Assembly: GCA_964507625.1 (NCBI GenBank)
Contig: CAZDPR010000001.1
Coordinates: 5,012 to 69,011, forward strand
Reading direction: 5' to 3'
Origin: an uncultured Candidatus Saccharibacteria bacterium
GTDB taxonomy: Bacteria; Patescibacteriota; Minisyncoccia; Phycocordibacterales; UBA1006
Length of the DNA stretch: 64,000 nucleotides
The position numbers and the translations under genes were made by a program. Under the pieces are notes generated by a model. That model saw only the letters and a program-made list of their open reading frames with translations, was not told the origin of the DNA and made no database searches. This document shows, piece after piece, positions 34,794-63,533 of this stretch (the stretch's first letter is position 1; each line of letters begins with the position of its first letter).

Positions 34794-34798
34794 ATTGT

Positions 34799-35752: not shown

Positions 35753-35818
35753 ATCATATAATAGTGTACCAAAAAAGAAAAAAAATAGATATAAAAAACA
35801 CACCACACGGTATGTTTT

Positions 35819-36622: not shown

Positions 36623-36640
36623 ATGTTCGCACAGTACCAC

Positions 36641-43083: not shown

Positions 43084-43813
43084 AAAGTTTCATAATTATG
43101 AAACTTTTTTTCGTGACAAAAAATTTTACCAACGTATAATAGAAATAATTATGGACACACAAAAGCAATACAACTATTTTGATCTTTCCTATCGCACCGG
43201 ATCTGATGTATGGACGCATACACCATATCATAAAACTGCATTGCGCATACTTCCCCCGCTCCCTGCAGGAACCATTGTGCTCGACATTGGATCAGGTCGT
43301 GGTATATGGGCTGTGAAACTCATCGAACAAGGATACCGTGTAATCGGCGTTGATTATGTAAAATCAATCGTAGAAAAATTAAATCAAGACATCAAAGAAT
43401 ATGCGAACGCAGAAAAAATTCGTTTCATTCAGGCTGAAGCAACCGATCTCCCTTTTACAGACAATAGTATTGAGCTTGCAACCGAAATTGGTCTTATGCA
43501 ACATTTTGATCACGACCATCAATTAAAGTATGTAACAGAATTACAGAGAATTATAAAATCAGGTGGATATGTATTATCGGTTAATCTTTCAGATCAAACA
43601 CCGCGATATTTAGATTTCACTCCAAAAACAAAAAATAATTCCCCATATGAAAAATTTGGGGTGAGTTATACCTTTTTTTCAAAAGAAGAAGTTGCAGAAA
43701 TGTTTGGCCAATACGGCTTTACAACAATACATCAAGAAATTGAATTTTTTGATTCTCGTACTGATCCAGGTGAATCGCTCGGGTTACTGTTTACGCTCGC
43801 ACAAAAAAAATAG
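43073..43813 (+). CDS. class I SAM-dependent methyltransferase
   Basis: VLDIGSGRGIWA (motif I), VIGVD, ...IKSGGYVL; true start possibly Met at about 43151. Confidence 0.6.
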   Translation: MGNKKFHNYETFFRDKKFYQRIIEIIMDTQKQYNYFDLSYRTGSDVWTHTPYHKTALRILPPLPAGTIVLDIGSGRGIWAVKLIEQGYRVIGVDYVKSIVEKLNQDIKEYANAEKIRFIQAEATDLPFTDNSIELATEIGLMQHFDHDHQLKYVTELQRIIKSGGYVLSVNLSDQTPRYLDFTPKTKNNSPYEKFGVSYTFFSKEEVAEMFGQYGFTTIHQEIEFFDSRTDPGESLGLLFTLAQKK

Positions 43814-43833
43814 CACCCGAAGGTGCTTTTTTG
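43806..43833. terminator. bidirectional terminator
   Basis: AAAAAAATAGCACC-cgaa-GGTGCTTTTTTG. Confidence 0.65.
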
Positions 43834-44094
43834 TTATAACAATTTTTCAGCTATAAGGAATAATCCAATATAGCCGACTAGTTGCATAAAACGAATCTTT
43901 TCATGTTGTTCGTATGTTTCAGATAATGAGTTACGAACAGTGTAGAAAAAATCGTCAGCGTAATTTTGGACAGTTCTCGAATGTTTTGGTTGCACTTCTT
44001 CACCGTCCTTGAGTTCGTAGATGAATTCTCTTTTTTCTTGAATTGCTACACGTACACACTCTAACTCTGATAAGAGATTGCTCAAAGACCGCAT
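43834..44094 (-). CDS. hypothetical 86-aa protein
   Basis: ORF only; a G9 homopolymer lies 46 nt upstream of its start. Confidence 0.3.
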   Translation of the reverse strand: MRSLSNLLSELECVRVAIQEKREFIYELKDGEEVQPKHSRTVQNYADDFFYTVRNSLSETYEQHEKIRFMQLVGYIGLFLIAEKLL

Positions 44095-44139
44095 TGCATC
44101 TTTTTTAATTGATTTTATTTCTCCTACAGAAAGTTTTCT

Positions 44140-44148
44140 GGGGGGGGG
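44140..44148. repeat. G9 homopolymeric tract in an intergenic/promoter region
   Basis: ctgGGGGGGGGGtt in a roughly 30% GC background. Confidence 0.7.
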
Positions 44149-44296
44149 TTAATTTTTCAGAGTTGTATGTTTCAATGGTTGTTTCAATTTTAGTCATCAC
44201 AACACTATCAGGGAGACACATATTTTTTTATTTGGTTCAAATATACTATACCATATATACAAAAATAATCAAACTCAACAATGTTGTGCTATACTC

Positions 44297-45100
44297 ATGT
44301 ATATGAAACTCGTCACATGGAATGTAAATGGAATTCGGTCGGTGCATAAAAAAGGAGTATTCGAACCGATGATTGCAATGCTTGAACCTGATGTTATCTG
44401 TCTCCAAGAAACCAAGGCACACCAACATCAGTCCCCGCTTGATCTGGCTGATTATCACGAATATTGGAATTCAGCAGAAAAAAAGGGTTACAGTGGTACG
44501 GCGATTTTTACCAAAGAAAAACCAATTACGGTGATTAATAATTTCCCAGAACATATTGTTAAAAAATATAAATTGGAAAATGACGGGTATGGGGATCCAA
44601 ATAACGAAGGTCGTGTGATTGCAGTAGAGCTTAAAAAAGTTTTTGTCGTGTGTGTGTACACGCCGAATGCAAAACCGGATTTATCACGATTGGCACTCCG
44701 TGCAAAACAATGGGATCCAGCGTTTTTGGAATTTTGTAAAGAATTAGAAACTAAAAAACCGGTATTATTTTGTGGAGATTTAAATGTTGCACATACTTTT
44801 GATGATCTCGCAAACCCCAAAGCCAACATCGGTGAACATGGATTTACTAATGAGGAACGATCAGGAATCGATAACATTATTCAATCAGGATTTATTGATA
44901 CATTCAGAATGTTTTATACGGGGAATGGTCACTACACCTGGTGGAGTAATTTTGGAAATGCACGAACAAGGAATGTTGGCTGGAGAATTGACTATTGGTT
45001 TGTTTCAAAAAAACTACAATCAAAAGTCATTGATACAAAAATATATCCCGAAATCACCGGGTCTGACCACTGCCCTGTCTTGCTTGAAATTAATATATAA
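44297..45100 (+). CDS. xth: exodeoxyribonuclease III / AP endonuclease
   Basis: WNVNGIRS...ICLQETK...SDHCPV signature motifs. Confidence 0.85.
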   Translation: MYMKLVTWNVNGIRSVHKKGVFEPMIAMLEPDVICLQETKAHQHQSPLDLADYHEYWNSAEKKGYSGTAIFTKEKPITVINNFPEHIVKKYKLENDGYGDPNNEGRVIAVELKKVFVVCVYTPNAKPDLSRLALRAKQWDPAFLEFCKELETKKPVLFCGDLNVAHTFDDLANPKANIGEHGFTNEERSGIDNIIQSGFIDTFRMFYTGNGHYTWWSNFGNARTRNVGWRIDYWFVSKKLQSKVIDTKIYPEITGSDHCPVLLEINI

Positions 45101-45128
45101 GTATACTGTTTTTTGAAAAGCAGAAAAT

Positions 45129-45335
45129 ATGAATATAACACAAGAAGGTGTACAGCTCGAATTGTTTGAACGTACCCCAAAAGAGCAAGCAGAGATAATT
45201 TTCCATAACTGTGGAACTGTTATCGAATTGCAAAATGCAACATCAGATAGAAAATACTCAAAAGAAGTTCAAGCTGAACTTCTCAGGTTACTACAAACTG
45301 ATCCTCGGGTGAAAAATCTACCAGAGGGCTTGTAA
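45129..45335 (+). CDS. hypothetical 68-aa protein
   Basis: ORF only. Confidence 0.25.
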   Translation: MNITQEGVQLELFERTPKEQAEIIFHNCGTVIELQNATSDRKYSKEVQAELLRLLQTDPRVKNLPEGL

Positions 45336-45424
45336 AGAACACCGGGTCACCTGACTCGGTTTTTTGTAATATATTTTTTCTTTGTAAAGATTATGTCTTT
45401 TATGGTTTGTGTATATAATTAATT

Positions 45425-47038
45425 ATGCACACTCAAAACAATACTCAAAAATATATTTTTATTACTGGCGGGGTCGTATCAGGATTGGGAAAAGGAATTA
45501 TGGGGGCCAGTATTGGACTCATTTTAAAATCCAGCGGGATAACAGTGGAAGCATTAAAAATGGATCCTTATTTAAATGTTGATCCAGGAACGATGTCACC
45601 CTACGAACATGGCGAGGTATATGTACTGGCCGATGGTGCGGAAACCGACCTTGATCTTGGGCACTATGAACGATTCCTGAACACGAACCTCACCGGACGG
45701 AGCTCTGTTTCTGCAGGTAAAATTTACCAATCAGTACTCGATAAAGAACGTAAGGGTGAATATCTAGGTCATACCGTACAACTCATTCCCCATATTACTG
45801 ATAAAATCAAACAAATTTATACAACTTCAGACAGCGAAATAAAGATTATTGAAATTGGTGGTTCGACTGGTGATATGGAAGCAGAAGTTTTTCTGGAAGG
45901 TATCCGACAGTTTAAACGAGATCGTCCTGACCAGGTGCTCCATGTTCATCTGGGTTATATTCCCTATCTGGCGGTTTCTGGAGAATATAAAACAAAACCA
46001 ATTCAAAATTCTATCAAAGAGTTGCTTCGCATCGGATTACAACCAGATATTATTGCTGCACGATTTGAACCAAAAGACGATGAAACACTTGCTGATGGAA
46101 TTCTGGAAAAAATTGCTCTGTTTTGTAACTTGTCCAAAGATCGTGTTATTCCCTGCCCTGACCTGAACAATATTTATCAAGTCCCACTCCACCTGCTCCA
46201 GAATACAGCAATTACCAATATTTTAGGAGAATTCTACGAACAATCAATTAATCCGAAACTCCCTCAGTTTTTTACCGACTATCAATCAGAAAAAACAAAA
46301 AAAGTTTCTATTGCGCTCGTTGCAAAATATACCAAACTTTCTGATTCATATCTCAGCGTTATTGAATCAATTAAAATTGCTGCTACTGCACAAGGGGTCA
46401 TGGCACACATTGATATACTTGATGCTGATGATCCACAATTACTTGATACGCTTGCTACCTATGACGGGATTATTGTACCCGGTGGATTCGGTTCGCGTGG
46501 AATGGAAGGGAAAATAAAAGCAATTCAATATGCTCGAGAAAACAAAAAACCATTCCTTGGGATTTGTTTAGGGTTACAATTAGCAACAATTGAATTTGCA
46601 CGACACGTTGCAGGAATCACTAACGCTGTGAGTCGTGAAATGGACCACACTAATGACACCGATGCGTTTATTATTGATTACATTCCAGAACAATTAAAAA
46701 TAGAACATAAAGGCGGTACGATGCGGTTAGGTAATTATGTATGCACGCTCGAACCAAACACCAAAATTGGATCGTTGTTCGGATCATTTGAAACTATCGA
46801 ACGACATCGTCACCGACTAGAGGTGCAAAACCAATATGTTCCAGATTTAGAAAAACATGGATTCAAAGTTTCTGGAAAGTTCAAAAAATCTGGTTCCGAT
46901 GATTATTTGGTAGAAATGATTGAGTTATCAGAAAACCTTCATCCATATTTTGTAGCTACGCAATCACACCCCGAATTTCTATCACGCCCCGACCTCCCTC
47001 ATCCGTTGTTTGCAGGACTCGTTAAAGCATGTTTGTAA
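45425..47038 (+). CDS. pyrG: CTP synthase
   Basis: FITGGVVSGLGKGI N-terminus; GATase domain GICLGLQ; 537 aa. Confidence 0.9.
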   Translation: MHTQNNTQKYIFITGGVVSGLGKGIMGASIGLILKSSGITVEALKMDPYLNVDPGTMSPYEHGEVYVLADGAETDLDLGHYERFLNTNLTGRSSVSAGKIYQSVLDKERKGEYLGHTVQLIPHITDKIKQIYTTSDSEIKIIEIGGSTGDMEAEVFLEGIRQFKRDRPDQVLHVHLGYIPYLAVSGEYKTKPIQNSIKELLRIGLQPDIIAARFEPKDDETLADGILEKIALFCNLSKDRVIPCPDLNNIYQVPLHLLQNTAITNILGEFYEQSINPKLPQFFTDYQSEKTKKVSIALVAKYTKLSDSYLSVIESIKIAATAQGVMAHIDILDADDPQLLDTLATYDGIIVPGGFGSRGMEGKIKAIQYARENKKPFLGICLGLQLATIEFARHVAGITNAVSREMDHTNDTDAFIIDYIPEQLKIEHKGGTMRLGNYVCTLEPNTKIGSLFGSFETIERHRHRLEVQNQYVPDLEKHGFKVSGKFKKSGSDDYLVEMIELSENLHPYFVATQSHPEFLSRPDLPHPLFAGLVKACL

Positions 47039-47067
47039 CAAAAAACTACCTAACAGGTAGTTTTTTG
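47039..47067. terminator. bidirectional terminator
   Basis: AAAAAACTACC-taaca-GGTAGTTTTTTG. Confidence 0.65.
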
Positions 47068-47069
47068 TT

Positions 47070-47876
47070 TTATATATTTTTATTAAAAAGTTCCTGAACA
47101 CGTCTTTTATATGTTATATCTGCATTAAAATAATCATCTGAAAAGTTGGGATTTGTAATATAAATATCTGTTTCAAATACTCCTTTTTCAAATTCCATAA
47201 AAGTAAACATTTTATCAGCAAGTTCTTTAGGTGTAATCCAAAATTCAGGATTTACTTTTGTTGAAAAAATAAAGGGTCGTTCGATCATTTCATCAACCGT
47301 AAAGATTGTGCTTGTGTTAAATAGATATATACTAACATTTTGAAAAGTTCCCTGGATTTTCTTTGAAAAGTTTTTTACCACATCTCGTGATTTTTTAAAT
47401 GATTGAAAAACTGGAATATTGTGCATATCAGCAAGTGAACCAAAAGAGACAACTCTTAGTTCTTTGTTTAAACTATTTGTTTTTTCAGCTAGAATCTCAA
47501 CCATTTCTATATAAGATTTTGCAACAAGATTATAAACCTCGTCATCAATTCCGTCATTGTCAAAATCATTTGCAACATTAATTTCTAGATTACTATTAAT
47601 TTCAGTTTTAAATTCACCAACAAGATGAAAATACTCAACAGAATTTACATTCGTAAAAGATATTTTTTTTAGAAAGTCTTTAATGCTATTTGAGTCAGCA
47701 AGGTCAACTTTAACAATTAAGTGGTGCTCAGGCAGTTTTTCAATACTTGAAATATCTACTCCTCTACGAGAAATACCATAAACTATAGTATTTTTTTGAC
47801 TAATATATTTTCGAGCAACTTCTTGCCCAATTGATCCGGTAATTCCAGACACGATAATAATTTTTTTATTTTCCAT
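47070..47876 (-). CDS. NAD(P)-binding Rossmann-fold protein (SDR/epimerase-like)
   Basis: N-terminal IIIVSGITGSIGQEVARK glycine-rich dinucleotide-binding motif. Confidence 0.5.
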   Translation of the reverse strand: MENKKIIIVSGITGSIGQEVARKYISQKNTIVYGISRRGVDISSIEKLPEHHLIVKVDLADSNSIKDFLKKISFTNVNSVEYFHLVGEFKTEINSNLEINVANDFDNDGIDDEVYNLVAKSYIEMVEILAEKTNSLNKELRVVSFGSLADMHNIPVFQSFKKSRDVVKNFSKKIQGTFQNVSIYLFNTSTIFTVDEMIERPFIFSTKVNPEFWITPKELADKMFTFMEFEKGVFETDIYITNPNFSDDYFNADITYKRRVQELFNKNI

Positions 47877-47986
47877 ATTGAAATAATAGCATTTATTTAA
47901 TAAAAAGTCAATTTATAATAATAAAATATGTATTTAGTAAAAAAATACTTTACTTTTTATTAAAAAACAGATATGATACAAGGTAT

Positions 47987-48802
47987 ATGAACCTCACAAA
48001 ACCAGAAACTACCGAGGAACGAATCATTTCCCTCCTCCTTAAAAATTCGCTTTCTGGGGTTGAGTTATTAGAAATACTTGATGTTTCTGGTAAAAAAATT
48101 ACAAAACAAGCGTTATATAGTGTTTTAAGAAAATTAATCCAAGATGAAATAGTCGTAAAACATGCAAAAATGTTTTCAATTTCTCGATTATGGCTCAAAA
48201 ATATGGCGAATATGTTTACCTCGGCTCAGGATCGTTACGGGATTGAACTTGAAAAAAACGACTTTCTTTCATTGCATGAAGGTGACAAGATTTCATATAC
48301 CTTTAAAAATCCATACGAAGCAGACCAGTTTTGGGGTCATGCATTTGATATTCTAATTGATAAAACACCATTAGAAATTCCTATTGTATTATACAATCCC
48401 CATCAGTGGTTTTTACTAGTTCGTAAGGACAGTGAATATCAGTTATTAGAACGAATTAGTAAAGAGGGAAAAAAGTTACATAACCATGTTGGGAGTTCGA
48501 ATGCGTTAGATAGATATGTAGAAAAGTATTTTAATTTACCGGGATTGCAATATGTAATGAATGAACAAGGGTATTTTGAAGCAAGGAATTATTATATCAA
48601 TATATTTAATAACTATATTATTGAAGTATATATTGATGAAAAAGTTGCCGAAGAAATTGATCGTTTTTATGAGCAATATACAGATTTTGATAAAATCGCT
48701 GAAAAGAAATTACAATCTATTGTATCCCAGGGTAAAACAAAACTTATTATTTCTCTGAATACCAAAAAAGCAGATAGATTAAGAGGGTTGATTGAAGCTT
48801 AA
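47987..48802 (+). CDS. wHTH putative regulator, paralog 3 (same family as 14001 and 16163)
   Basis: KQALYSVLRKLIQDEIVVK...ISRLW...NPHQWFLL...KTKLIISLNTKKADRLRGL; collinear motifs with paralogs 1 and 2; divergent from the SDR-like gene. Confidence 0.45.
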   Translation: MNLTKPETTEERIISLLLKNSLSGVELLEILDVSGKKITKQALYSVLRKLIQDEIVVKHAKMFSISRLWLKNMANMFTSAQDRYGIELEKNDFLSLHEGDKISYTFKNPYEADQFWGHAFDILIDKTPLEIPIVLYNPHQWFLLVRKDSEYQLLERISKEGKKLHNHVGSSNALDRYVEKYFNLPGLQYVMNEQGYFEARNYYINIFNNYIIEVYIDEKVAEEIDRFYEQYTDFDKIAEKKLQSIVSQGKTKLIISLNTKKADRLRGLIEA

Positions 48803-48836
48803 AAAACACCTGTTTCATATGAAACAGGTGTTTTTG
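48801..48836. terminator. terminator whose stem is a parS-like palindrome
   Basis: AAAAAACACCTGTTTCATATGAAACAGGTGTTTTTG. Confidence 0.65.
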
Positions 48837-48873
48837 TTATGGATTAGATAAAAAATGGTTACATGTGAAACGT

Positions 48874-50364
48874 TTATTTATTAGCTTTCTTGGCAACATT
48901 ATGTTTCATGTGTAACTTGGTAATTTCTTGATTATCAATTTGTTCTTTGGTTTCCTTCCCTTTTTCTCCTAATGTACGAAGAATTGTATCATCTAGCTCA
49001 TTAAGATCTTTTACTCGTTCTGTTAATGTTTCCAGGGTGTTTTTTGTGGGGTCTTCCAAAACCTCTTCGAGTAATGCATGTAATATCCACCCCATGCGTG
49101 GCCCTGGTTTCATGTGTAACGTATGGAGTAAATAGTTCCCATCAATAGCGAGCTGTTTTACACTGATCGGATCACGCAAACATTCCTCAATCATGGCAAA
49201 ATATTTACGCAGACGATAGGGTGCCTCTGTTTTAGACATTCCAACACGGTCACATTCACGGACTTTCATGAGATCCCAAATATATTCCTTACCGACATTT
49301 TGAATCATTCTCCGCACAGCAGACAATGTGATTTGTTCTGTGTCGCTAAAAAACATATGCCAACGGACAAACATAACAACGATTTCAATGTCCTTTTTAG
49401 GAAATTTTAATCTTTCAAGGACTTTCTGGGTTATTCGTGCACCAACTACCTCATGTCCGTAAAAAGTATATGCTTTTTTATTTCCAGGCCTACGTGTTTT
49501 TGGTTTTCCGATATCGTGGAACAACGCTGCCAGTTTCACATGAAACGGATAGTCTTTATCTGCAGCATGCTGTAATGCATATACCAAATGGTCAAAAACA
49601 TCGTATTTATGGACTCCTCCTTGTTCACAATTAATTCCAGGAACGAATTCAGGGAGAATTATCTCCAGTACCCCTAATTGTTTCATGAGAAACATTCCAA
49701 TACCAGGATTTTTAGAATCTATTATTTTAATAAACTCATCCCTAATCCGCTCTATTGATATATTTTTCAATAAATCTTTGGTTTCTGATATTGCGGATAG
49801 GGTTTCATATGAAACAGGTAGGTTTAACTGAGCTGAAAAGCGGATAGCACGCATAATACGGAGTGCATCCTCTGAAAAACGTTCCACAGGATTACCAACC
49901 GATTCAATAATTCCCTTTTCTAATGATTGTTTCCCATGAAACGGATCAATAAACTCATATGTTTCAGGATTTAACGCAATTGCATTCATGGTGAAATCTC
50001 GACGAGAAAGGTCATCAATGATGTTTTTACTAAAAGACACAGAATCAGGATGTCTGTTATCAGAGTAATTACCTTCTGTCCGATATGGGGTCACCTGGAT
50101 TTCTCGCACAGTACTGGTGAGATCTTCATCTTCAAAAACAACAGAAACTGTTCCAAATTGGTTTTCGTACACCACCTTGAGATCGTCTAATTCAAATATG
50201 GGGATCATTTCCTCTGGGATTGCATTTGTTGTAATATCCCAATCTTTGGGTTCACGTGAAACGATAATGTCGCGTACACAACCTCCTACTAGGTACGCCT
50301 CAAAACCCGCTTTGGCAAGCAAGTTCGTTACACGGGAAACATTGTGAGGAATACGCGCATTCAT
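48874..50364 (-). CDS. cca: CCA-adding enzyme / tRNA nucleotidyltransferase with an HD domain
   Basis: LVGGCVRDIIVSREPKDWDITT (PolB-type NTase), HD motif LAALFHDIGKP; 496 aa. Confidence 0.8.
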   Translation of the reverse strand: MNARIPHNVSRVTNLLAKAGFEAYLVGGCVRDIIVSREPKDWDITTNAIPEEMIPIFELDDLKVVYENQFGTVSVVFEDEDLTSTVREIQVTPYRTEGNYSDNRHPDSVSFSKNIIDDLSRRDFTMNAIALNPETYEFIDPFHGKQSLEKGIIESVGNPVERFSEDALRIMRAIRFSAQLNLPVSYETLSAISETKDLLKNISIERIRDEFIKIIDSKNPGIGMFLMKQLGVLEIILPEFVPGINCEQGGVHKYDVFDHLVYALQHAADKDYPFHVKLAALFHDIGKPKTRRPGNKKAYTFYGHEVVGARITQKVLERLKFPKKDIEIVVMFVRWHMFFSDTEQITLSAVRRMIQNVGKEYIWDLMKVRECDRVGMSKTEAPYRLRKYFAMIEECLRDPISVKQLAIDGNYLLHTLHMKPGPRMGWILHALLEEVLEDPTKNTLETLTERVKDLNELDDTILRTLGEKGKETKEQIDNQEITKLHMKHNVAKKANK

Positions 50365-50372
50365 ATAGTTTA

Positions 50373-50660
50373 TTATTGATCACTTGATACATCTTTTGCA
50401 TCAGATTTTATATCACTTGTTTCATGTGGAACATTAAAATCTTCATGATGATTATTTGTTTCACGTGAAACTTGCTCTTGTTTTTTTGGAATAATAGCCC
50501 AACAAATAATATAGAACAGTATTCCAGGTAGATTAAAGATTAATGTAATTAATACATAAGCCAGTCGTACCAATGTCGGATCTTTTTCAATATGTTCAGC
50601 AAAACCACCTAAAACACCACCAAGTATTTTTTCTTGATTTGATCGATATAGTTTTTTCAT
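50373..50660 (-). CDS. PspC-domain membrane protein
   Basis: LYRSNQEKILGGVLGGFAEHIEKDPTLVRLAYVLITLIF...YIICWAIIP fits the PspC-domain consensus; start moved to the internal Met to clear tRNA-Arg. Confidence 0.55.
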   Translation of the reverse strand: MKKLYRSNQEKILGGVLGGFAEHIEKDPTLVRLAYVLITLIFNLPGILFYIICWAIIPKKQEQVSRETNNHHEDFNVPHETSDIKSDAKDVSSDQ

Positions 50661-50727
50661 AAGTATTATGGCAAGTTCTTTAGTTTCTTGCTCATTATTA
50701 GTATACAACATTCTTAAAGAATTTATG

Positions 50728-50799
50728 TGCACCTACCAGGACTCGAACCTAGAATAACAGTTCCGAAGACTGCTGTGATATCCATTTCACCATAGGTGC
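50728..50799 (-). tRNA. tRNA-Arg (anticodon UCG)
   Basis: reverse complement folds as GCACCTA-TG-GTGA-AATGGATA-TCAC-A-GCAGT-CTTCGGA-ACTGT-TATT-CTAGG-TTCGAGT-CCTGG-TAGGTGC-A. Confidence 0.75.
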
Positions 50800-50872
50800 T
50801 TTTTAATTATTCGAACTTAGTAAAAATAGCATATATTTTACATTAAATCAAGTTATATTCATTATTAGCTAG

Positions 50873-50943
50873 TGCAAGCAGAGGGAATCGAACCCTCGAC
50901 TTCTCCTTGGCAAGGAGATATTTTACCACTAAACCATGCCTGC
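50873..50943 (-). tRNA. tRNA-Gly (anticodon GCC)
   Basis: reverse complement has anticodon arm TCTCC-TTGCCAA-GGAGA, T-arm GAGGG-TTCGATT-CCCTC, acceptor GCAGGCA/TGCTTGC. Confidence 0.8.
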
Positions 50944-51393
50944 GATAAATCGAGTATATCATAAGGACTTTATTTTTGAACAGATAAGTTAATAAAGGAC
51001 TTATACACAAATTCCCCAAGTTATCCACATATTGTGTAAGACAAGAATAAAAAAATCAGGAACAATTTTGTCAAAAAATTATTGACATATAATAATTTTA
51101 TTATTTTTAAATCAAAAATAGCCTTTATTTTTATTAAAAATGTGGATAAACCTGTGGTATATGTTTATAACCGACAAGTCAATATTGTCTATTGTTAAAA
51201 AAATTGTGTCTCACAATAGTCTTATATAAAATTTTTTTATCAAAATATTCATATAAAATAAGCTTATTTTGAATAAAAACTTTTTATCAGACAAAAAAAT
51301 AATATTGTGGATATTAATATGTTTCACGTGAAACATATTAATTTTATTAAACTAATAAAAATTTGAACTAAAATATATTATAATAAACCTGCT
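50944..51393. promoter_or_regulatory. AT-rich intergenic region with a DnaA-box cluster (second origin-like element)
   Basis: perfect TTATCCACA at 51021, perfect TGTGGATAA at 51140, TGTGGTATA at 51152, TGTGGATAT at 51306, perfect parS at 51319; about 20% GC. Confidence 0.5.
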
Positions 51394-51843
51394 ATGAAAC
51401 GCTTTACTACAGGAAAACAAAAAATTGGTGAATTAGGTGAAACGTTTGCGCAGAATTTTTTAGTTGAACAAGGGTATGTAACTATTCAGAGAAACTTTAA
51501 TTGTCGTTTTGGTGAAATTGACTTGATTATGAAAAAGGGAAGTCGGTTACATTTTATTGAAGTAAAGACAGTAGTACAAAAAAGTGCTACTGACCTGGTA
51601 GTAAACTCGCAAATGTCTTTGAGTAACCGAGAGTTATTTATTAAAGAATATCGATCACTTACTAATCCTTTTGAAAATATTTCGTTTCGCAAGAAAAAGA
51701 AGCTCATAAAAACAGTAAGGTATTATTATTTAGTGAATAAAAAAATACCAGAAAATTTTTCCATTGATGGCATTGGAATTATTTTAAATAAAAATAATGA
51801 AGTCACTGATTGTAAAGTTATCCACAATATCATTATTCAATAG
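51394..51843 (+). CDS. YraN-family (UPF0102) endonuclease-like protein
   Basis: ...FGEIDLIMKKGSRLHFIEVKTV... PD-(D/E)xK-type signature of the YraN family. Confidence 0.65.
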   Translation: MKRFTTGKQKIGELGETFAQNFLVEQGYVTIQRNFNCRFGEIDLIMKKGSRLHFIEVKTVVQKSATDLVVNSQMSLSNRELFIKEYRSLTNPFENISFRKKKKLIKTVRYYYLVNKKIPENFSIDGIGIILNKNNEVTDCKVIHNIIIQ

Positions 51844-51884
51844 TATAGGGAATATGAATATTTACTTTATAATAGTAAGTATCT

Positions 51885-54800
51885 ATGTCTAACGCTAATA
51901 CATTTGGAACAATTGGAAGTAAAAAAGTAAACACTGTTTCGATAGAAAAAGTTGTACCTCAATCAAATTCAAAAAATCCCAACCTTGATTTTATTAAAGG
52001 TCGCCCACCAGTGGATTCGCTCGCAGCAAAAATGAAAATTATTCCTGAGGGACAGACGGAGGCTGATCATGTTTCAAAAGATATAGAATCAAAAAATACA
52101 GTTGACCTTACTTTTGGGTCCACAAAAATTGGTCAAGAGCCTCCACAGCATATTTTAATGTTGTTAAAAAAATTAAATATACCATTTTCTATTGATAAAA
52201 ATTATATTCAACATACTCCAAACGAAACATTTTTTACAGTCTTTGAACCTGGTTCTAATAGAAAAATAATGATTGATTTAAAAAATCAAGATATAGTAAC
52301 CTCTTTTGATAGTTCTCAATTTACGAAATTTTTTGAAAATAAATCTATTTCTAATTCTGAGCTTAAGGATGATGAGGAAATAAAAAATCCTTTTGCTAAT
52401 ATAGTCGAAGGTTTTTCACCTGATAATTTAAAAAAAATATACGGAGAACAAGAAGGAGTTTCTAATGGGGAAGAAAAAACAGTAAAAACTATTGAAGATC
52501 GAATTAAAGAAATTGATGCAGAGTTCCGTTCGATTATGACAAAGTCAGATGATGCTTCAAAATTACGAAGACTTGAATTAACACGAGAAAAAACAAAATT
52601 AACACGGGAAAAAAATAAAATTAAGGAAATAGATACTGAAGATCAGAAGATTGAAAAAGATTGGTCGTTCGGTAAAAAGTTTATTGAAGGCAAAAAAGAA
52701 CCCGTTTCTTCTGATGATGCAATTCGTCAAGAATATCAAGAGTTAAGTAATAAGGTGAGCGCAGAAGGGTATACAGAACAAGAACGTGAAGCATTCCTTG
52801 AAAAAGGAATTGCAATTGAAAAAGTTTTAACTAATTTAAAACAAGAAAAAATAGCAAGTCCTGTAGTGACATTAGAAAATAAAATTGGGAATACTACTGG
52901 TCTCATAGACCTTTTCAAAGTAATTGAGCAGTCAAATGGCATTCGTCGTGGAGAAGATTTCTTTACTCCAGGAGAAATAAGGGAACGCATTGTTAAATTC
53001 TTACAGAGTAATGGTGATATTCGAGATATACCAGAAACTGATGGTTTGAGGAAAAAAGTTCTTGAAATTAAAAAAAATCGCGAACAAGAAAATATGTTAC
53101 TTGAAATGGATGGTGCTTCAGAATTAAAATCAGACAATGTCATACCCGTAGCCCTTGAACAAGGGTTAGAAAGTGTTACTGTTAAAAATGTCTTACCAGA
53201 TGATGTTTTTTTGGATGAGCCTGTACTCATCGCACAAGAACAAAACAAAAAAAGGCTTGAGCAAGAAGCGTTAGAACTACAAAAACAAGATCAGCAAAGA
53301 ATAAAAATGGAAATGCTGAAAAATAATCTTAATGCAGCACGTGCTGAATACGCAAAACAACAAGGTGAATACAATAAACGTTCTTACATCGATCGGTTTA
53401 GTGCAAAAGTTGCTAATATTTTTGGAAACAATTCAGAAGTAACCCGAGAAAAATTCAACGCACAAAACGCTTATGAATCTGCAAAACAGGCATATCTCCA
53501 GGAAATGGCGCAACAGAAAAAACCAGTAACTGAAATTATTGGTTTCATACAACAAGAGCAGGTGACTTTTGCAGAATCAATGCCGCTCAAGCGTCGACAA
53601 CAATTGGCAAGGTTTGCTGGTAAATTAGGGATGGGGGCGCTATCAACAGTTGCAACCACTGTCGGTACTGTTGCAAATTCTTATACTCAAGCTACTGAAT
53701 CAGCATTGAAAACAATTGGTTTGAGTGAAGCATCTGCAAAAACTGCTTCAAAATGGATTGGTCGTGGACTCCTTGCTACTACGTTTGGATTAGTGTCAGG
53801 AGGGGGAGGTATTGTCGCAACAGCTGGAAATGTTGCGGTTCGCATGGCTGGCGCAGAACTCGCTGATTGGGCAGTACTCAAAAGAGTATTTGGGAATGAT
53901 ACGGAAGCAAAAGTTTTGGAAAAAACGGTAGAAAAATTTGCAGAAACCGATCTTACCAATGCAAAAAACTTGGCAACGCTTGAACGTAAAGTGAAAAATG
54001 CTAAAAAAACGAGCACATTAAACAGGTTTATGCGTGGTGCGTTAAAAATTGGCGCAGGAATGGGAACCGGGGCTGCAGTAAATGCAATTGATGCAGCGTA
54101 CTTTACACCACAGGTGGAAGTCCCTCAAACACCCAATGATATGCAAATTGGAAAAATAGAAGAAGATATTGGTATCCGGCCAGAGGCTACTCCAGGGACA
54201 GGAGTTGAAAATCTTTCATCTGATGCACTGGTAAGAACTGGGGAAGGGGTTACTCATCCAATTTTACGACAACTCCAAGCTGACCCCGAGCTTGCAAAAG
54301 CGTTCGGTGTTGAAGGTACTCCTACCGGAGCTGATGCTGCGCGTGTAGCAAAAGAATTTGGATATATTGACACAAATGGTACAGAAATCCGAGTATTTGA
54401 TGGTAATAATGCTGCATATGAGTTGAAAATTGATAGTAATGGAAACCCTGTAATAAATGAATACAAAAATGGGATTTTTATGGAGTCAAAATCAATTGGG
54501 TCAGCATTTGAAGGTTCTGGTGCTGAGCCTTATGAATACATAGAAAATAAAACTCCTATAACATCATTTAATGCAGGTTCTGCAAATAATTTCCCAGAAC
54601 AGTTTGATCAACCCGCTCCTGGTTATCAACCAGAAGCTACGACAACGCTTGAAAAAATCCAATCTAATATTGTTGGCGGTGGAATAAGTATTCCACAATC
54701 ATTAAATCCATTTATTGATGGCAGTGCTCCGTTTGATCCAAGTAATATAGCTCTTAATAAAATTTTGTTAACAGAAGCTTATCCAAATGCAACTAGTGAT

Positions 54801-54923
54801 CAGTTAATAAAAATGGCAGAGGGTGTAAAAAATCTTTATGCGCAAGGGGTTACGACTCCGCCGGATCAATTATTTAACCAGGCTCAGTCAGTAAAAGTTA
54901 CTCCTGATACACTCTTCAACTAA
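51885..54923 (+). CDS. large hypothetical protein (1012 aa) with coiled-coil N-half and glycine-zipper hydrophobic segments
   Basis: locally elevated GC (spurious antisense ORFs appear); segments GALSTVATTVGTVANSY, GLLATTFGLVSGGGGIVATAGNVAVRMAG, ALKIGAGMGTGAAVNAIDAAY; no N-terminal signal peptide. Confidence 0.5.
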   Translation: MSNANTFGTIGSKKVNTVSIEKVVPQSNSKNPNLDFIKGRPPVDSLAAKMKIIPEGQTEADHVSKDIESKNTVDLTFGSTKIGQEPPQHILMLLKKLNIPFSIDKNYIQHTPNETFFTVFEPGSNRKIMIDLKNQDIVTSFDSSQFTKFFENKSISNSELKDDEEIKNPFANIVEGFSPDNLKKIYGEQEGVSNGEEKTVKTIEDRIKEIDAEFRSIMTKSDDASKLRRLELTREKTKLTREKNKIKEIDTEDQKIEKDWSFGKKFIEGKKEPVSSDDAIRQEYQELSNKVSAEGYTEQEREAFLEKGIAIEKVLTNLKQEKIASPVVTLENKIGNTTGLIDLFKVIEQSNGIRRGEDFFTPGEIRERIVKFLQSNGDIRDIPETDGLRKKVLEIKKNREQENMLLEMDGASELKSDNVIPVALEQGLESVTVKNVLPDDVFLDEPVLIAQEQNKKRLEQEALELQKQDQQRIKMEMLKNNLNAARAEYAKQQGEYNKRSYIDRFSAKVANIFGNNSEVTREKFNAQNAYESAKQAYLQEMAQQKKPVTEIIGFIQQEQVTFAESMPLKRRQQLARFAGKLGMGALSTVATTVGTVANSYTQATESALKTIGLSEASAKTASKWIGRGLLATTFGLVSGGGGIVATAGNVAVRMAGAELADWAVLKRVFGNDTEAKVLEKTVEKFAETDLTNAKNLATLERKVKNAKKTSTLNRFMRGALKIGAGMGTGAAVNAIDAAYFTPQVEVPQTPNDMQIGKIEEDIGIRPEATPGTGVENLSSDALVRTGEGVTHPILRQLQADPELAKAFGVEGTPTGADAARVAKEFGYIDTNGTEIRVFDGNNAAYELKIDSNGNPVINEYKNGIFMESKSIGSAFEGSGAEPYEYIENKTPITSFNAGSANNFPEQFDQPAPGYQPEATTTLEKIQSNIVGGGISIPQSLNPFIDGSAPFDPSNIALNKILLTEAYPNATSDQLIKMAEGVKNLYAQGVTTPPDQLFNQAQSVKVTPDTLFN

Positions 54924-54958
54924 TAGGTCGAAGTTATATTTTTAATTATATATATTTT

Positions 54959-55303
54959 ATGGATGCACAAAAATTTCATGAGACGCTTGTTCAAGAATTT
55001 AATCTCCAAGCGTACTCACCACAAGAGCAAGCACAATATATCGATCAGTTGGGCGAATTAGTACTCCAAGGGGTATTACTCAAAGCGTTTTCTGCTATTT
55101 CAGATGAACAAGCTGATCAAATGGAAAAATCTATGGAACAGGGAATGGAGCCTGAACAGATGATGAGCATGCTCCAATCAATGATCCCAGGGTTTGCAGA
55201 ATTGGTTCGAGACGAGGTGATGCAAGTAAAACAAGATCTTGCCACCGGGACCAATTCATCAGACGTTACACCTTCAACAAATTCTGATTCTATTTTTGGA
55301 TAA
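54959..55303 (+). CDS. acidic, Q/M-rich hypothetical 114-aa protein
   Basis: ORF only; follows the 1012-aa gene; terminator after it. Confidence 0.35.
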   Translation: MDAQKFHETLVQEFNLQAYSPQEQAQYIDQLGELVLQGVLLKAFSAISDEQADQMEKSMEQGMEPEQMMSMLQSMIPGFAELVRDEVMQVKQDLATGTNSSDVTPSTNSDSIFG

Positions 55304-55337
55304 TAAAAAAGAGCATTCGAGACATGCTCTTTTTTGT
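55304..55337 (+). terminator. terminator
   Basis: AAAAAAGAGCAT-tcgagac-ATGCTCTTTTTTG. Confidence 0.65.
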
Positions 55338-55374
55338 ATAAAAAACATAATGTTCCTGTGATATACTTTATTAT

Positions 55375-57297
55375 ATGAATTTTGATTATTTAAATGATTT
55401 AAACAATGAACAGCGAAAAGCGGTAATGCATACAGCAGGACCGCTTTTAATTGTTGCTGGTGCAGGAACTGGAAAAACAAAAACATTAACCTATCGAATT
55501 ATGCATTTAATAGAACAAGGGGTAGATGCGCATGCAATTTTAGCAATTACTTTTACCAATAAAGCAGCTAATGAAATGAGGGAACGATTACGTCATATGC
55601 TCGGCGAACACAGAACTATGCCAATGATGAAAACTTTTCACGGACTCGGAGTGTATATACTGCGTAGGTTTTATCAAGAAGTGGGAATTCGCAAAGAGTT
55701 TGCTATTCTTGATACTCAGGACACAATGAAATTAATTAAAGAATGCATGGAAGAATTATCGATTGACCCCAAAAAATATGACCCACGAACCATCCGTACT
55801 ATTATTAGTAATGCAAAAAATGCAGGAAAATCAGTTTTTGATTTTGAATCAGAAATACACAACGAAACATCGAATTTTGCTTTACAAATTTGGAAACTTT
55901 TTGAAACCAAGAAAAAAGCAGAACACGCACTTGATTTTGATGATTTATTAATAAAAACACGCGATGTTTTAAAAAATAATGCATTGGTACGCGAAACATT
56001 GCAAAAACAATTCCAGTATATTCATATTGATGAGTATCAGGACACCAATCAGGTACAATATGAAATTGCAAAAATTTTGGCGGCAGATGATCACAATATT
56101 TGCGCAGTGGGCGATACTGATCAAAATATCTACAGTTGGCGTGGAGCAAATATTAAAAATATGCTCAATTTTGAAAAAGATTTTCCTGGAACCATTACTA
56201 TTATGCTCGAACAAAACTATCGTTCGTCAGGAAATATTTTATCTGTAGCTGATGCGATTATTACCAAAAACACTGCTCGTATTGAAAAAACATTGCGCAC
56301 AGAAAAATCAGCAGGTGAAAAAATTGCAGTATATATAGGACTGAACGAGTCCCATGAAGGAAACTTGATTGCAGGTGAAATCAAGCAAATCTTATCCCAT
56401 GGAGTTCCAGCAAACGAAATTGCAATATTATTCCGAACACATTTTCAATCACGAGTATTAGAAGAATCGTGTTTGAAAAATGATATTCCGTACCACGTAT
56501 TGGGGGTAAAATTCTTTGATCGTAAAGAAATCAAGGATCTTGTCTCGTATATTCGTGCAAGCGTTAATCCAGACAGTTTAACTGACGTAAAGCGAGTTAT
56601 TAATGAACCTAAAAGAGGTATTGGAAAGGTAGCTTTAGCAAAAATTTTTGCAAACCAGGCGAATGATCTTTCGGGGGCCGCAGCACAAGGGTATCGAGAC
56701 TTTCAAATGATATTGCACGATATTCGTACCAGTGCTTCAGAAAAAATACCATCAGAGGTAGTGCGATTTGCAATAGACCGATCTGGAATGAAATATGCTT
56801 ATATGAATGGTCCAGCAGATGAACAGGAGCGGTTAGAAACGATGGAGGAATTGGTAACCTATGCGCTTCGTTATGATGAATTACCAATTGGAGATGGAAT
56901 ATTGCAAATGCTTGAAGATATTGCATTATTATCAGAACAGGACAATATCAGAGATGATCGACCTGCGGTAAAGTTAATGACCGTGCATGCTGCAAAAGGG
57001 CTCGAGTTTAATTATGTATTTGTATCAGGAATGGAGCAGGGATTATTCCCTCATGCAGGATATGACCAGAAAAAAGGTAAGGAAGAGCAAGAAGAAGAGC
57101 GTCGTCTGTTTTATGTAGCAGTAACCCGAGCCCGGGAACAGCTGTATCTGTCCTATGCATATTCTCGAACCGTATACGGACAACAGAATTTTAATGCTCC
57201 GAGTGAATTTTTAGCCGATATTCCGGATACTTTGTTGGAATATCAAGAAACGGATGCACCAGAAGAACCCTTAAAAACCGTGTATTTGGAGTGGTAA
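55375..57297 (+). CDS. pcrA: UvrD/PcrA/Rep-family superfamily 1 DNA helicase
   Basis: motif I AGAGTGKTKTLT, II DEYQDTN, III, V, VI VAVTRAREQL; 640 aa, lacking the usual C-terminal tail. Confidence 0.8.
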   Translation: MNFDYLNDLNNEQRKAVMHTAGPLLIVAGAGTGKTKTLTYRIMHLIEQGVDAHAILAITFTNKAANEMRERLRHMLGEHRTMPMMKTFHGLGVYILRRFYQEVGIRKEFAILDTQDTMKLIKECMEELSIDPKKYDPRTIRTIISNAKNAGKSVFDFESEIHNETSNFALQIWKLFETKKKAEHALDFDDLLIKTRDVLKNNALVRETLQKQFQYIHIDEYQDTNQVQYEIAKILAADDHNICAVGDTDQNIYSWRGANIKNMLNFEKDFPGTITIMLEQNYRSSGNILSVADAIITKNTARIEKTLRTEKSAGEKIAVYIGLNESHEGNLIAGEIKQILSHGVPANEIAILFRTHFQSRVLEESCLKNDIPYHVLGVKFFDRKEIKDLVSYIRASVNPDSLTDVKRVINEPKRGIGKVALAKIFANQANDLSGAAAQGYRDFQMILHDIRTSASEKIPSEVVRFAIDRSGMKYAYMNGPADEQERLETMEELVTYALRYDELPIGDGILQMLEDIALLSEQDNIRDDRPAVKLMTVHAAKGLEFNYVFVSGMEQGLFPHAGYDQKKGKEEQEEERRLFYVAVTRAREQLYLSYAYSRTVYGQQNFNAPSEFLADIPDTLLEYQETDAPEEPLKTVYLEW

Positions 57298-57320
57298 ATT
57301 TTTTATAGTATACTAGATTT

Positions 57321-59525
57321 ATGAATCAAATTTTTTTTAGAAACCAGCAAAGTATTTTAAAAGAAAAACCAGGTGATAAAAAAATTGAAAGTTTTGAAGA
57401 CCTTTCAAAGAATTTTGATTTCTATAACCTAGATCAAAAGGGATATAGTAATTTTGTAAAAGATTTCTCAAATGAATTTCTTGAAAGAGAATTTAAATTG
57501 GGGAGAATAATAAAAGACCCTACAGGAAGGCTTGTTGTAAATACTCAGACAGAGGATTTTATTAAAAGTGCTATTGATAGAATTAGTAAATTTAAAACAA
57601 GAAGGCCTGACGATGTTTCATTTTTACTTCTTTTATATAGTGATATTTTTATAAAAACTGAAAATGGACTAGAAAAATTCCTAGATATTCCAAAAACCAA
57701 AGATCATTTATTGACTGGATCAGAAGGTTTTCATGATTTTCTCTCCTTAAAAGGTGTTTCTCCAAAAGTGGAAATAGTTTTACCAGATGGAACAAAAACA
57801 AATCCTTTAGAAATCTCTTTTTTGAGAGCATGTAGGAAATATAACATTTCTAGACAAAAGGGTGATAAGCTTTTTTATACTAATCCAGAAACAGGAAAAA
57901 GAGAAAGATTTTTCATAAAAAGAATTGAAGATGGTTCTATAAAAATGAAATATTTTAAAGAAATGTTTAATATAGAAAAAATAAAAGAAATCCTACATAA
58001 TTGCTTCGAGGAAGAGATAATTAAAACTACAGATTTTCGACTAGACAATAGAGATAATTTTGGCTTAGATGAAAAAAGTTTTGAAAATAAAAAAGTTTTT
58101 TTTGGTCCCAAGTATGCAAGTTTTACCACTATTCCTGGCTATTCAATACGTTATTATTTAGGTAGAAATAAAATACCAGGTATTAATATTGACTGGAAGC
58201 CAACAATAAAATTATCTAGACTAGACAAAAACACCGCTGCGTTTATAGACTCAAGTTATGGTGTTAATAAAATTATTGCAACACTTGACTTATTCCAAGA
58301 TAAATATGCTATAGAGAAAATGTTTCTGACCGCAAAAGAGTTAGGAGTTAAAGATCCTGATGCAAATTTAGTACTCAATAATGATTATACAGAAAAGAAC
58401 ATACAATCTTTTGATATTAAAAATATTTTACCTCAATTTGTAAAGGAAAACCCACTAGATCACCTAGATTTCTTAAGTCAGGTTACTGATGTAAAAAATG
58501 TTATAAATATGACTAGAAGTGTATTAGAAAAATTAAACATTTCTGTTCTTGAAATACCATTCAAACAACAGGTATTACTGTTCGGCTCTCTTAGTCAAAT
58601 AGGAAAGGAGGATGAGGTTATAAATTTAGTTAAAAAATTTAAAATTAATGGATTAAAAACTTTCCTTTCTCTTGAACATGGTGGACAAGAAATGGGTGAT
58701 AAAATTCTTGAGCTAGGTAAGATACTCGAACAACACGATGCAGAGCGTGTATTTACTGGATACGCACAAATTATTGATCAAGCAGATTCGTTAAAAAATC
58801 GTCTAGAAAATTCATTACAAGATCGGGATATAGTCTCACTTGAACTAAAGAAGAAAATCCCCCACCAGATATATGATGCGTTGTTACTTCGTGCAAAAGA
58901 TATTTTAATAGGCGCTCATATGGTTGCAACAGGAACGATTGAAGGAAAACTCGATATTGATGAAGTGTGTAATGCACTTGCAGGTATTACTAAAATGCTT
59001 CATATTATTAATCATTTACATACCCAGGATTACTATCAGTTTACTAAAACACTTGAGACACCCCAAAATCATAAATATCATATTATTGATTCTGTAACAC
59101 AACATGAATACATCTTAAAAATTTTCTTGCGACCATATGCAGAAAAAAACGCTCAAGCCCGTGCCAATTTTGAATTATCTTTTGACACAAAAAATCCAGA
59201 TCCAATATTACAAAAAACATTTTATAATGAAATTATTTCACATACCCAGAATAAAAAGATATCAGGTTCAGTATTACGTATTGGTATTGATCGAGAGGAT
59301 TATGATGGAGTTGGTCGTGTATCACTCGATATAGGAAGGTCAGAACGCAGTGATACAGAACTTACTCGTACTGGAGATATACTTGGAAACTTACTTTCAT
59401 ATGCATCTATCGATGGCCACCATACCACAGAACCATTCAGTTCAGAATTTGGTGATCCAGAAACATTCGCACAACTTGTAAACCTACTAGGAACGTCATT
59501 AATAAAACAAAAACAGCCTAATTAG
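57321..59525 (+). CDS. hypothetical 734-aa protein
   Basis: long ORF with native codon usage; no recognisable motif. Confidence 0.45.
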   Translation: MNQIFFRNQQSILKEKPGDKKIESFEDLSKNFDFYNLDQKGYSNFVKDFSNEFLEREFKLGRIIKDPTGRLVVNTQTEDFIKSAIDRISKFKTRRPDDVSFLLLLYSDIFIKTENGLEKFLDIPKTKDHLLTGSEGFHDFLSLKGVSPKVEIVLPDGTKTNPLEISFLRACRKYNISRQKGDKLFYTNPETGKRERFFIKRIEDGSIKMKYFKEMFNIEKIKEILHNCFEEEIIKTTDFRLDNRDNFGLDEKSFENKKVFFGPKYASFTTIPGYSIRYYLGRNKIPGINIDWKPTIKLSRLDKNTAAFIDSSYGVNKIIATLDLFQDKYAIEKMFLTAKELGVKDPDANLVLNNDYTEKNIQSFDIKNILPQFVKENPLDHLDFLSQVTDVKNVINMTRSVLEKLNISVLEIPFKQQVLLFGSLSQIGKEDEVINLVKKFKINGLKTFLSLEHGGQEMGDKILELGKILEQHDAERVFTGYAQIIDQADSLKNRLENSLQDRDIVSLELKKKIPHQIYDALLLRAKDILIGAHMVATGTIEGKLDIDEVCNALAGITKMLHIINHLHTQDYYQFTKTLETPQNHKYHIIDSVTQHEYILKIFLRPYAEKNAQARANFELSFDTKNPDPILQKTFYNEIISHTQNKKISGSVLRIGIDREDYDGVGRVSLDIGRSERSDTELTRTGDILGNLLSYASIDGHHTTEPFSSEFGDPETFAQLVNLLGTSLIKQKQPN

Positions 59526-59537
59526 GCTGTTTTTGTT
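59506..59537. terminator. bidirectional terminator between convergent genes
   Basis: AAAACAAAAACAGCCTAATTAGGCTGTTTTTGTT. Confidence 0.65.
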
Positions 59538-60366: not shown

Positions 60367-60430
60367 TTAATTAAAAAAGCTATATTTTATAATGTTTATT
60401 TTAAAAAATATAATTTTTATTCACAAGTCA

Positions 60431-60459
60431 TTGACAAAACAATATGATTATGCTATACT
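60431..60459 (+). promoter_or_regulatory. consensus sigma70-type promoter (TTGACA-17 nt-TATACT) firing rightward
   Basis: TTGACA at 60431-60436, 17-nt spacer, TATACT at 60454-60459; predicted TSS about 60466. Confidence 0.6.
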
Positions 60460-60465
60460 GTGGGT

Positions 60466-61264: not shown

Positions 61265-61730
61265 CAGCAGAGGAGAGAATCGTCTGTTGGTAGAAGTTGT
61301 GAAATTGTTTCCAGAACTTTCTGTTCAATAGTATTGAATGGTTGGTTATGGAAATAATGTCAAATATGGTCAGCCTTCCGGGGCTGACCGTCGTGGGTAA
61401 GATAGATTTGCCCACGAAAACTGCGGGCAAAAAAGCCCGCAAAAAATATTTCAAACCTTTCACCGGTGGGTCGACCATCGGGGAAAGGTTGAAAGCCGCA
61501 GGTGTTACTTTAAAGTAACACCTGCGGTGGTCACCGAATGACCTCAAAAATGTCGGCGTGATAGAGTGATCCTTACGAGAAATGGATTGCAGGTTCATTA
61601 GACCAAAGCGTGTTTGCAAAGTAATGCCTTGGCATGAAATGCAGAGATCTTTGGCAAGCAAACAGAGCCTGTAAGCTCTGGCGGTACCTAAAATAAAACC
61701 GCGCTTTTCTTTTTTTAAATCATATAATAT

Positions 61731-63314: not shown

Positions 63315-63533
63315 TCTCTTGAGCTATGTCCTACGCGAGACCGTAGGAAGAGCACATGCCTGACGTGCGAATTCTGGTTAATCAGGTAATGAGAGTTTGG
63401 TTGTAACTCTTGAAAAAACAATCGACAGGGTTAAAGGGTTAACATGGAGAGCAATCTCCAACTGTCTCCGTCTCATAGGCGGACTGATGAGTCTTGTTCT
63501 GAATAATACTGAAGAACGAAAGACGAAACAGGA

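Follow-up and report, generated by a model that had tools for sequence, protein, structure and literature searches.

In the DNA analyzed here, a 64-kb stretch of a Patescibacteria (CPR) genome with 33% GC (hereafter the window), a cluster of predicted DnaA boxes lies beside a perfect parS site in the AT-rich gap between tRNA-Gly(GCC) and yraN. The explanation that we favor, and consider probable if not assured, is that this is an origin-proximal, centromere-embedded cluster and not the place where replication starts, that the start lies instead at dnaA–dnaN, and that the cluster sequesters DnaA, couples DnaA to ParB, or does both. The region is more interesting as a conserved parS–DnaA unit than as a mere box cluster: DnaA-box clusters and centromere-bound DnaA are already known, and what is new is the fused, conserved arrangement of parS with a trio of boxes. 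DnaA and ParB binding, and every functional consequence discussed below, we infer from the sequence.

DnaA Boxes and parS Sites at 51 kb

The gap (50944–51393) measures 450 bp and 20.4% GC, close to the roughly 20% over 450 nt given by an earlier, sequence-only reading of this DNA, and has the lowest GC content of the intergenic gaps of at least 120 bp in the window. That reading had tRNA genes flanking the region, which is correct for the left side, where pspC (encoding a PspC-domain protein) and cca (encoding the CCA-adding enzyme) follow beyond tRNA-Arg, and incorrect for the right, where the neighbor is yraN (Table 1). An independent single-run assembly (Logan SRR13355622_11084) is identical to window 50726–59535, with zero mismatches. 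An Rfam search of the 51-kb region returned no credible match.

The DnaA-box cluster beside parS is real and nonrandom. The gap holds two perfect boxes, two with one mismatch, and four with two mismatches. In Markov simulations based on the region's own composition, at least two perfect boxes arise in the gap with P = 3e-5 and at least four boxes with at most one mismatch with P = 2e-4; moreover, three of the five perfect boxes in the 64 kb fall inside 0.8 kb. Chance, with AT-rich intergenic DNA simply yielding box-like words, could be suspected from the window as a whole, in which the 33 matches with at most one mismatch are a mild excess over the 23.8 ± 4.9 of shuffled sequences. Against it stand the two perfect boxes at gap composition and their concentration, and it is already refuted by the conservation of the box trio, whose box-defining columns are invariant in 33 of 33 sequences; we give a compositional artefact a negligible probability.

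Most of the box positions read earlier hold. The boxes at 51021, at 51818 inside yraN and, in isolation, at 3981 are perfect as claimed, and the two variants graded 7–8/9 both proved to be 8/9 matches, at 51001 and 51306; the box placed at 51140 is likewise perfect, and its start had been set one base off. Boxes 51001 and 51021 face the trio over a 111-bp AT-rich spacer (51030–51140) and lie directly upstream of the tRNA-Gly promoter. The isolated box (3981–3989) lies 3 nt past the stop codon of a SpoU-type methyltransferase gene, within a 339-bp, 26% GC gap upstream of a gene for a CYTH-domain protein.

Table 1. Predicted features of the 51-kb region and of the dnaA–dnaN region, in window coordinates
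Feature	Position	Strand	Remarks
dnaN	17294–18400	−	
Unwinding module	18401–18473	−	boxes, DnaA-trios and AT tract; dnaA–dnaN gap
Five consecutive xTA DnaA-trios	18451–18437	−	followed by AT tract up to dnaN start codon
Tandem DnaA boxes TTATCCACA-GTATCCACA	18473–18456	−	followed by 4-nt spacer
dnaA	18653–20005	−	
Ten degenerate parS-like sites	48811–50472		1–3 mismatches; mostly in cca and pspC coding sequence
tRNA-Arg(TCG)	50727–50799	−	left flank of 51-kb gap
tRNA-Gly(GCC)	50872–50943	−	left flank of 51-kb gap
Promoter-like site TTCAAA, 16 nt, TGaTATACT	50953–50980	−	tRNA-Gly/tRNA-Arg/pspC/cca unit
DnaA box TTATACACA	51001–51009	+	8/9
DnaA box TTATCCACA	51021–51029	+	perfect
DnaA box TGTGGATAA on top strand (TTATCCACA on minus strand)	51141–51149	−	perfect; box 3 of trio
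Trio box 2 TATACCACA	51161–51153	−	weaker than box 3
Trio box 1 TTATAAACA	51170–51162	−	weaker than box 3
DnaA box ATATCCACA	51306–51314	−	8/9; abuts parS palindrome
parS TGTTTCACGTGAAACA	51320–51335		perfect; just upstream of yraN
yraN (UPF0102)	51394–51843	+	right neighbor; reads away from parS/box module
DnaA box in 3′ end of yraN	51818–51826		perfect; lineage-specific

The perfect parS site, which the sequence-only reading had also recognized, is the center of a 30-bp perfect palindrome (51313–51342). Between 48811 and 51335 there are 11 parS-like sites with at most three mismatches, against 0.7 expected, so that this 16-bp palindrome is clustered in one perfect and 10 degenerate copies within 2.5 kb. 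The degenerate sites in cca and pspC (48874–50732) are fitted by VSRE, VSYE, FHVK, and VSRV codons, and the array thus appears to be written into coding sequence; one site about 560–660 nt into cca recurs in many relatives. Together, the perfect and the ten degenerate sites are the predicted centromere array of the chromosome, with parS 51320–51335 as its conserved primary site. The parAB genes adjoin the origin or parS sites in most bacteria. Here, Pfam found no ParA or ParB in the 64-kb window, and tblastn searches of local sequence, covering the window and 133 related loci, detected neither gene; within 10 kb of dnaA or of the parS module, no ParA/ParB homolog was seen in the 133 loci. This absence counts against the explanation that we favor.

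The parS–Box Trio Unit in Relatives

A scan with the CCA enzyme, limited to one genome per species, yielded 49 Patescibacteria loci at 49–84% identity, of which 32 had sufficient upstream flank for comparison, giving 33 sequences with the window. An exact search of public assemblies for the cca protein of the window gave no record. All 32 relatives keep the same unit: yraN, parS, about 157 bp, three boxes, a degenerate second parS, the tRNA-Gly promoter, and cca. In each of them parS has zero to two mismatches and lies 25–40 nt from the yraN start codon, and the three boxes have an identical order and head-to-tail orientation in 33 of 33 sequences, with the alignment consensus cTGTCt.TTATaCaC..TaCcCACAGgtTTATCCaCA. 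The invariant columns (TGTC, TTAT.C.C, CAC, and TTATCC.CA) are those that define the boxes, except for TGTC, which lies outside them, directly 5′ of box 1 in the minus-strand reading. Box 3 is TTATCCCCA rather than TTATCCACA in about half of the relatives, a point against the explanation that we favor. The perfect box 51141–51149 of the window is thus a member of the conserved trio, adjoined by the two weaker boxes. The earlier reading had linked its cluster to the parS array; this link is borne out, in that main parS and box trio are conserved together as a single unit, and it is more important than had been stated.

The trio is spaced more tightly with respect to parS (parS to box 3: interquartile range 156–160 bp, range 134–186) than with respect to the tRNA gene (118–145 bp, range 63–220). 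The parS–box distances fall into indel classes of 134, 145, 156, 168, 177, and 186 bp. Helical phasing of this distance was considered and set aside, a Rayleigh test at 10.5 bp giving p ~0.08–0.12, which is not significant. A structured RNA in the module was likewise rejected: RNAalifold shows the parS palindrome only, without covariation.

In contrast to the trio, boxes 51001, 51021, 51306, and 51818 are missing from the closest relative, L001 (CCA enzyme 84% identical). Box 51306 sits in an insertion not present in L001, and boxes 51001 and 51021 are not alignable to L001, L032, or L011, the relatives having the degenerate second parS at this place. Sites resembling parS with at most two mismatches number seven in L001 and one or two in most other relatives. 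These four boxes and most of the parS array are recent, lineage-specific gains, and the addition of four boxes and about ten parS sites in the lineage of the window fits selection on binding capacity, not on unwinding geometry. Furthermore, parS, a DnaA box, and cca are linked in other arrangements in two distant relatives: L002 has cca, four parS sites, a box, and then xerC, and in L044 cca is preceded by six parS-like sites and a box.

The surroundings of the trio invite another reading, in which the boxes are purely transcriptional operators for tRNA-Gly/tRNA-Arg/pspC/cca, for yraN, or for both, with no role in replication or segregation. The trio does lie between promoter-like sites. Upstream, in about 13–15 of the 33 sequences, a near-consensus promoter (P1, TTGACA-16-TACAAT) ends 26 nt short of box 1; downstream, at about 80–100 bp, is the conserved tRNA promoter, and the promoter-like site of the window matches this conserved P2 of relatives (TTTTCA-17-TAGAAT, TTTCCA-17-TACAAT). 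Boxes 51001 and 51021 of the window would stand at about −45 to −75 of the tRNA promoter, the promoter-like site of yraN in relatives has a parS half-site as its −35, and DnaA is a known transcription factor at the DnaA-box clusters of Bacillus. However, P1 is missing from about half of the relatives, including L001, and from the window, whereas the trio is universal, and an account of the trio as a mere P1 operator was therefore dropped. The distance from trio to tRNA gene is also variable where that to parS is nearly fixed, and the linkage of parS and boxes recurs in the other gene arrangements described above. The trio thus has parS and the short TGTC motif as its invariant partners, and no particular promoter. 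We judge a purely transcriptional role improbable; as operators, the boxes would nevertheless be compatible with the explanation that we favor, the two not being exclusive.

Two further observations were made in relatives. Across the 133 related loci, perfect DnaA boxes have a 5.5-fold excess of A(A/G)GACA, or TGTC(C/T)T on the opposite strand, at distances of up to 60 bp (e.g., L002 2330–2400); the invariant TGTC next to box 1 is an instance of this motif, and so is the one next to parS. The motif shows no enrichment in the module of the window itself, and four copies are clustered at 36250–36850; it may be the site of some partner protein. In addition, L003–L049 share a second conserved noncoding region about 6–8 kb from the module in the direction of yraN (e.g., L049 2930–3600), flanked by rsmE and by a hypothetical gene close to clpP and rny. 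Repeated AAAAGACA motifs surround its one perfect DnaA box, and a TTGCAT-N17-TATTAT promoter comes directly after them; about 500 nt without an ORF or Rfam match follow, and the region may be an RNA gene under DnaA control.

Replication Most Likely Starts at dnaA–dnaN

The basal unwinding system (BUS) of bacterial origins consists of a DnaA box, a spacer of at most 16 bp, and at least three DnaA-trios (PMC8287927). We searched for boxes with at most two mismatches followed within 16 bp by at least three consecutive DnaA-trios, defined by a middle A on the trio strand (consensus 3′-GAT-5′). The best match in the 64 kb is the box pair of the dnaA–dnaN gap, with five xTA (six.T.) trios after its 4-nt spacer. 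Between 50944 and 51830, in contrast, the longest run beside any box is two to three xTA, and two at box 51141. Of all 60-bp duplexes in the 64 kb, the least stable (18392–18451) also lies beside the dnaA–dnaN boxes; among the least stable duplexes, the 51-kb gap comes fourth at 100 bp and is outside the top eight at 30 and 60 bp. In this part of the window dnaN and dnaA diverge from rpmH-rnpA-yidC, and the gaps flanking dnaA (18401–18652 and 20006–20182) each contain a box cluster; the box groups that the sequence-only reading had seen on both sides of dnaA are located at 18456–18473 and 20044–20132.

The same distinction is found in relatives. A metagenome scan with DnaA gave 80 loci, and DnaA-trios were scored in 69 dnaA–dnaN gaps: at least four stand by a box in 45 of the 69 and at least three in 59, while the parS modules have at most one in 26 of 32. 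The dnaA–dnaN gaps of relatives average 23% GC, compared with 37% for their loci, and the parS modules 33%, compared with 39%; the layout of the dnaA–dnaN gap is shared as well (e.g., TAATCCACATATCCACA-ggac-TAATAGTAATAATAA). These signatures suggest that the DNA opening for replication start is most likely in the dnaA–dnaN gap, 31 kb from the parS cluster.

Skew and the Possibility of an Origin at 51 kb

Several features of the 51-kb region are nevertheless origin-like, and one may propose that it is an active or second origin, in which DnaA opens the spacer 51030–51140 and the boxes flanking dnaA only autoregulate dnaA. Beyond the lowest GC content of the window's gaps, the region has boxes facing each other about the 111-bp AT tract, and transcription diverges from it; the genes at 51.4–59.5 kb are all directed away from it, with positive skew. 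In addition, parS sites usually lie near origins. The main evidence for such an origin comes from the third-codon GC (GC3) skew of the window, in which a likelihood scan gives dLL 4.9 at 34.8–35.8 kb, 3.2–4.4 at 47–51.9 kb, and 0.3–0.5 at dnaA. A switch at 35–52 kb is preferred over one at dnaA by 3.5–4.5 log units. The cumulative skew of the window also rises steadily after 51 kb.

Relative to L001 8260–16507, window 42127–51850 (9.7 kb, from xerC to yraN and including the whole centromere module) is inverted. The inversion by itself predicts a sign change at 51.85 kb, and the apparent switch there coincides with its breakpoint. We treat the skew of the window as confounded because of this inversion and of the opposite coding skew of a type IV secretion-like block that follows the dnaA region (21.7–35.8 kb), and, the effect also being small (r ~0.05), it was rejected as an origin locator. 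An origin at the skew minimum (~35.8–36.9 kb) was discarded too, there being no gap at 35.8 kb and no box with at most one mismatch in the ksgA–M23 gap. An origin at 51 kb would, moreover, leave ksgA to rpsO (35.8–42.1 kb) with a lagging-type skew. The flanks of the inversion keep their orientation, with rpsO on one side and h114-pcrA on the other, and its breakpoints coincide with an xerC-like tyrosine recombinase gene (42127–43083) at one end and the perfect box 51818 at the other.

To use relatives, GC3 skew was split into a coding term and a strand term. At their dnaA loci the strand term takes negative values toward the type IV secretion genes and positive ones toward dnaN, and the coding skew of PBP1 is −0.134 in the 36 genomes in which the gene points toward dnaA, versus +0.089 and +0.185 where it points away. 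Around the parS module, the strand term amounts to about +0.05 to +0.09 toward yraN, apart from about −0.09 within the nearest 1.5 kb, and to +0.12 to +0.23 toward cca. The 22 relatives with long flanks show no lasting reversal at the module. With a positive term on either side, replication forks appear to run through the module, from yraN toward cca. The step in skew at the module (r ~ +0.05 on one side, +0.2 on the other) stands against our favored explanation. Nonetheless, the replication component reverses at dnaA and not at the module, the 51-kb boxes lack adjacent runs of DnaA-trios, no 30- or 60-bp duplex of the region ranks with the least stable, and the facing boxes are missing from L001, and we consider an origin at 51 kb quite improbable.

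The sequence-only reading had offered the region as a displaced part of a bipartite oriC or as the principal DNA unwinding element, and neither proposal fits the evidence. Bipartite origins flank dnaA within about 1.5 kb, as in the Bacillus incAB-incC and Helicobacter oriC1-oriC2 (PMC8287927, PMC6669920); here both clusters flanking dnaA are already present, the 51-kb cluster is 31 kb off, without DnaA-trio runs, and the skew of relatives flips at dnaA. In every relative, over 10 kb separate the module from dnaA. The 51-kb region resembles the BUS and bipartite origins in having DnaA boxes in AT-rich intergenic DNA, but the run of box, spacer, and DnaA-trios that is present at dnaA–dnaN, together with the least stable 60-bp duplex, is absent from it, and a role as the unwinding element of the origin is not supported.

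A Possible Link between Initiation and Segregation

The remaining suggestion of that reading, a DnaA-titration or regulatory cluster, fits the conservation of trio and parS and the absence of an unwinding module at 51 kb. Under the explanation that we favor, a short DnaA oligomer would assemble on the three close, head-to-tail boxes, at a distance of about 15 helical turns from the parS site at which ParB would load, and within the zone of ParB spreading. Sequestration of DnaA on DNA that lies near the origin and is copied shortly after initiation could damp re-initiation, as for the Bacillus DnaA-box clusters, and DnaA occupancy and ParB loading or sliding might influence one another, so that segregation or SMC loading would be tied to the state of initiation, as at the Caulobacter centromere. 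The flanking promoters (yraN, with its −35 in parS, and the tRNA-Gly/cca unit) would become sensitive to DnaA and ParB. Of these effects, we favor DnaA sequestration near the origin and cross-talk between DnaA and ParB, with transcriptional effects on yraN and tRNA/cca as a by-product. A bolder version, which we think unlikely, is that centromere and initiator are hard-wired: the DnaA oligomer on the trio would gate ParB loading or sliding, or would itself be sequestered by ParB-condensed DNA, an arrangement amplified in the lineage of the window, where the region may even fire as an origin. If this is true, then the unit would be a minimal device for coupling replication and segregation.

Known systems offer partial precedents. 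In Escherichia coli, datA and DARS, small DnaA-box clusters located outside oriC, adjust how much active DnaA is available by driving DnaA-ATP hydrolysis or ADP release; IHF or Fis take part, and the box orientations are specific, with one inverted box in DARS. Here, in contrast, the trio is all head-to-tail and has parS attached. In Bacillus subtilis, origin-proximal DnaA-box clusters (DBCs) lie outside oriC (Okumura et al. 2012, PMC3245932), and their loss causes early initiation and is synergistic, or synthetically severe, with loss of Spo0J (ParB) (PMC3245932). As in the DBCs, consensus-like boxes are clustered here in intergenic DNA, 31 kb from the dnaA–dnaN unwinding module, in an origin-proximal domain with parS and between divergent or neighboring promoters. 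The predicted 51-kb cluster differs from the DBCs in that a nearly constant 157 bp and a fixed orientation join it to the primary parS, and in having a core of only three boxes that is kept across a whole Patescibacteria clade.

The Caulobacter crescentus centromere is another such precedent. There, domain IV of DnaA binds boxes in the parS region of this alphaproteobacterium, enabling segregation (Mera, Kalogeraki and Shapiro 2014; review PMC6399470). The two systems share initiator boxes inside a centromere region separate from the origin and a link between initiation and segregation, and differ in the arrangement and spacing of the sites and in the Caulobacter origin not being next to dnaA. 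The boxes described here are of the canonical TTATCCACA type in a phased trio, and no ParA/ParB was found in the window. In Deinococcus radiodurans, a noncoding region, cisII/cisMP, is reported to interact with both DnaA and ParB (PMC7671480). The likeness is that one noncoding region carries sites for both proteins (here predicted), and the difference is that the Deinococcus regions act as origins on secondary replicons and consist of direct repeats arrayed upstream of parAB, while the 51-kb element is on the main chromosome, away from dnaA and without nearby parAB.

Patescibacteria are ultra-small bacteria with tiny genomes, and their replication timing and chromosome segregation are almost unstudied. 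The box trio with the primary parS, kept down to about 50% CCA identity, provides a concrete and testable cis-element for the coupling of initiation and segregation. It also follows that origin predictors relying on DnaA-box density alone would be misled in this clade, where the box-plus-trio module at dnaA–dnaN is the better marker. Our search of the literature on origins or ParB in Patescibacteria returned nothing specific beyond type IV secretion genes near dnaA, an arrangement reported for Paceibacteria (PMC12102498).

Other Regions of the Window

The type IV secretion-like block (21677–35806) is anomalous in several respects. Its coding-strand GC3 skew is +0.05 to +0.37, compared with −0.04 to −0.13 for the orthologs in all relatives, which have the same orientation and adjoin yidC-dnaA. 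The distal genes of the block are 33–44% identical to those of L001, compared with 58–87% for neighboring housekeeping genes, and two independent contigs end exactly at the yidC/block junction (~21.65 kb). Horizontal replacement, structural variation, or an assembly join are possible causes. At the far end of the window, 60367–64000 has ORFs without a Pfam match and no rRNA or other Rfam family; its GC content is 44–46%, compared with 33% for the window, and it may be foreign or mobile DNA.
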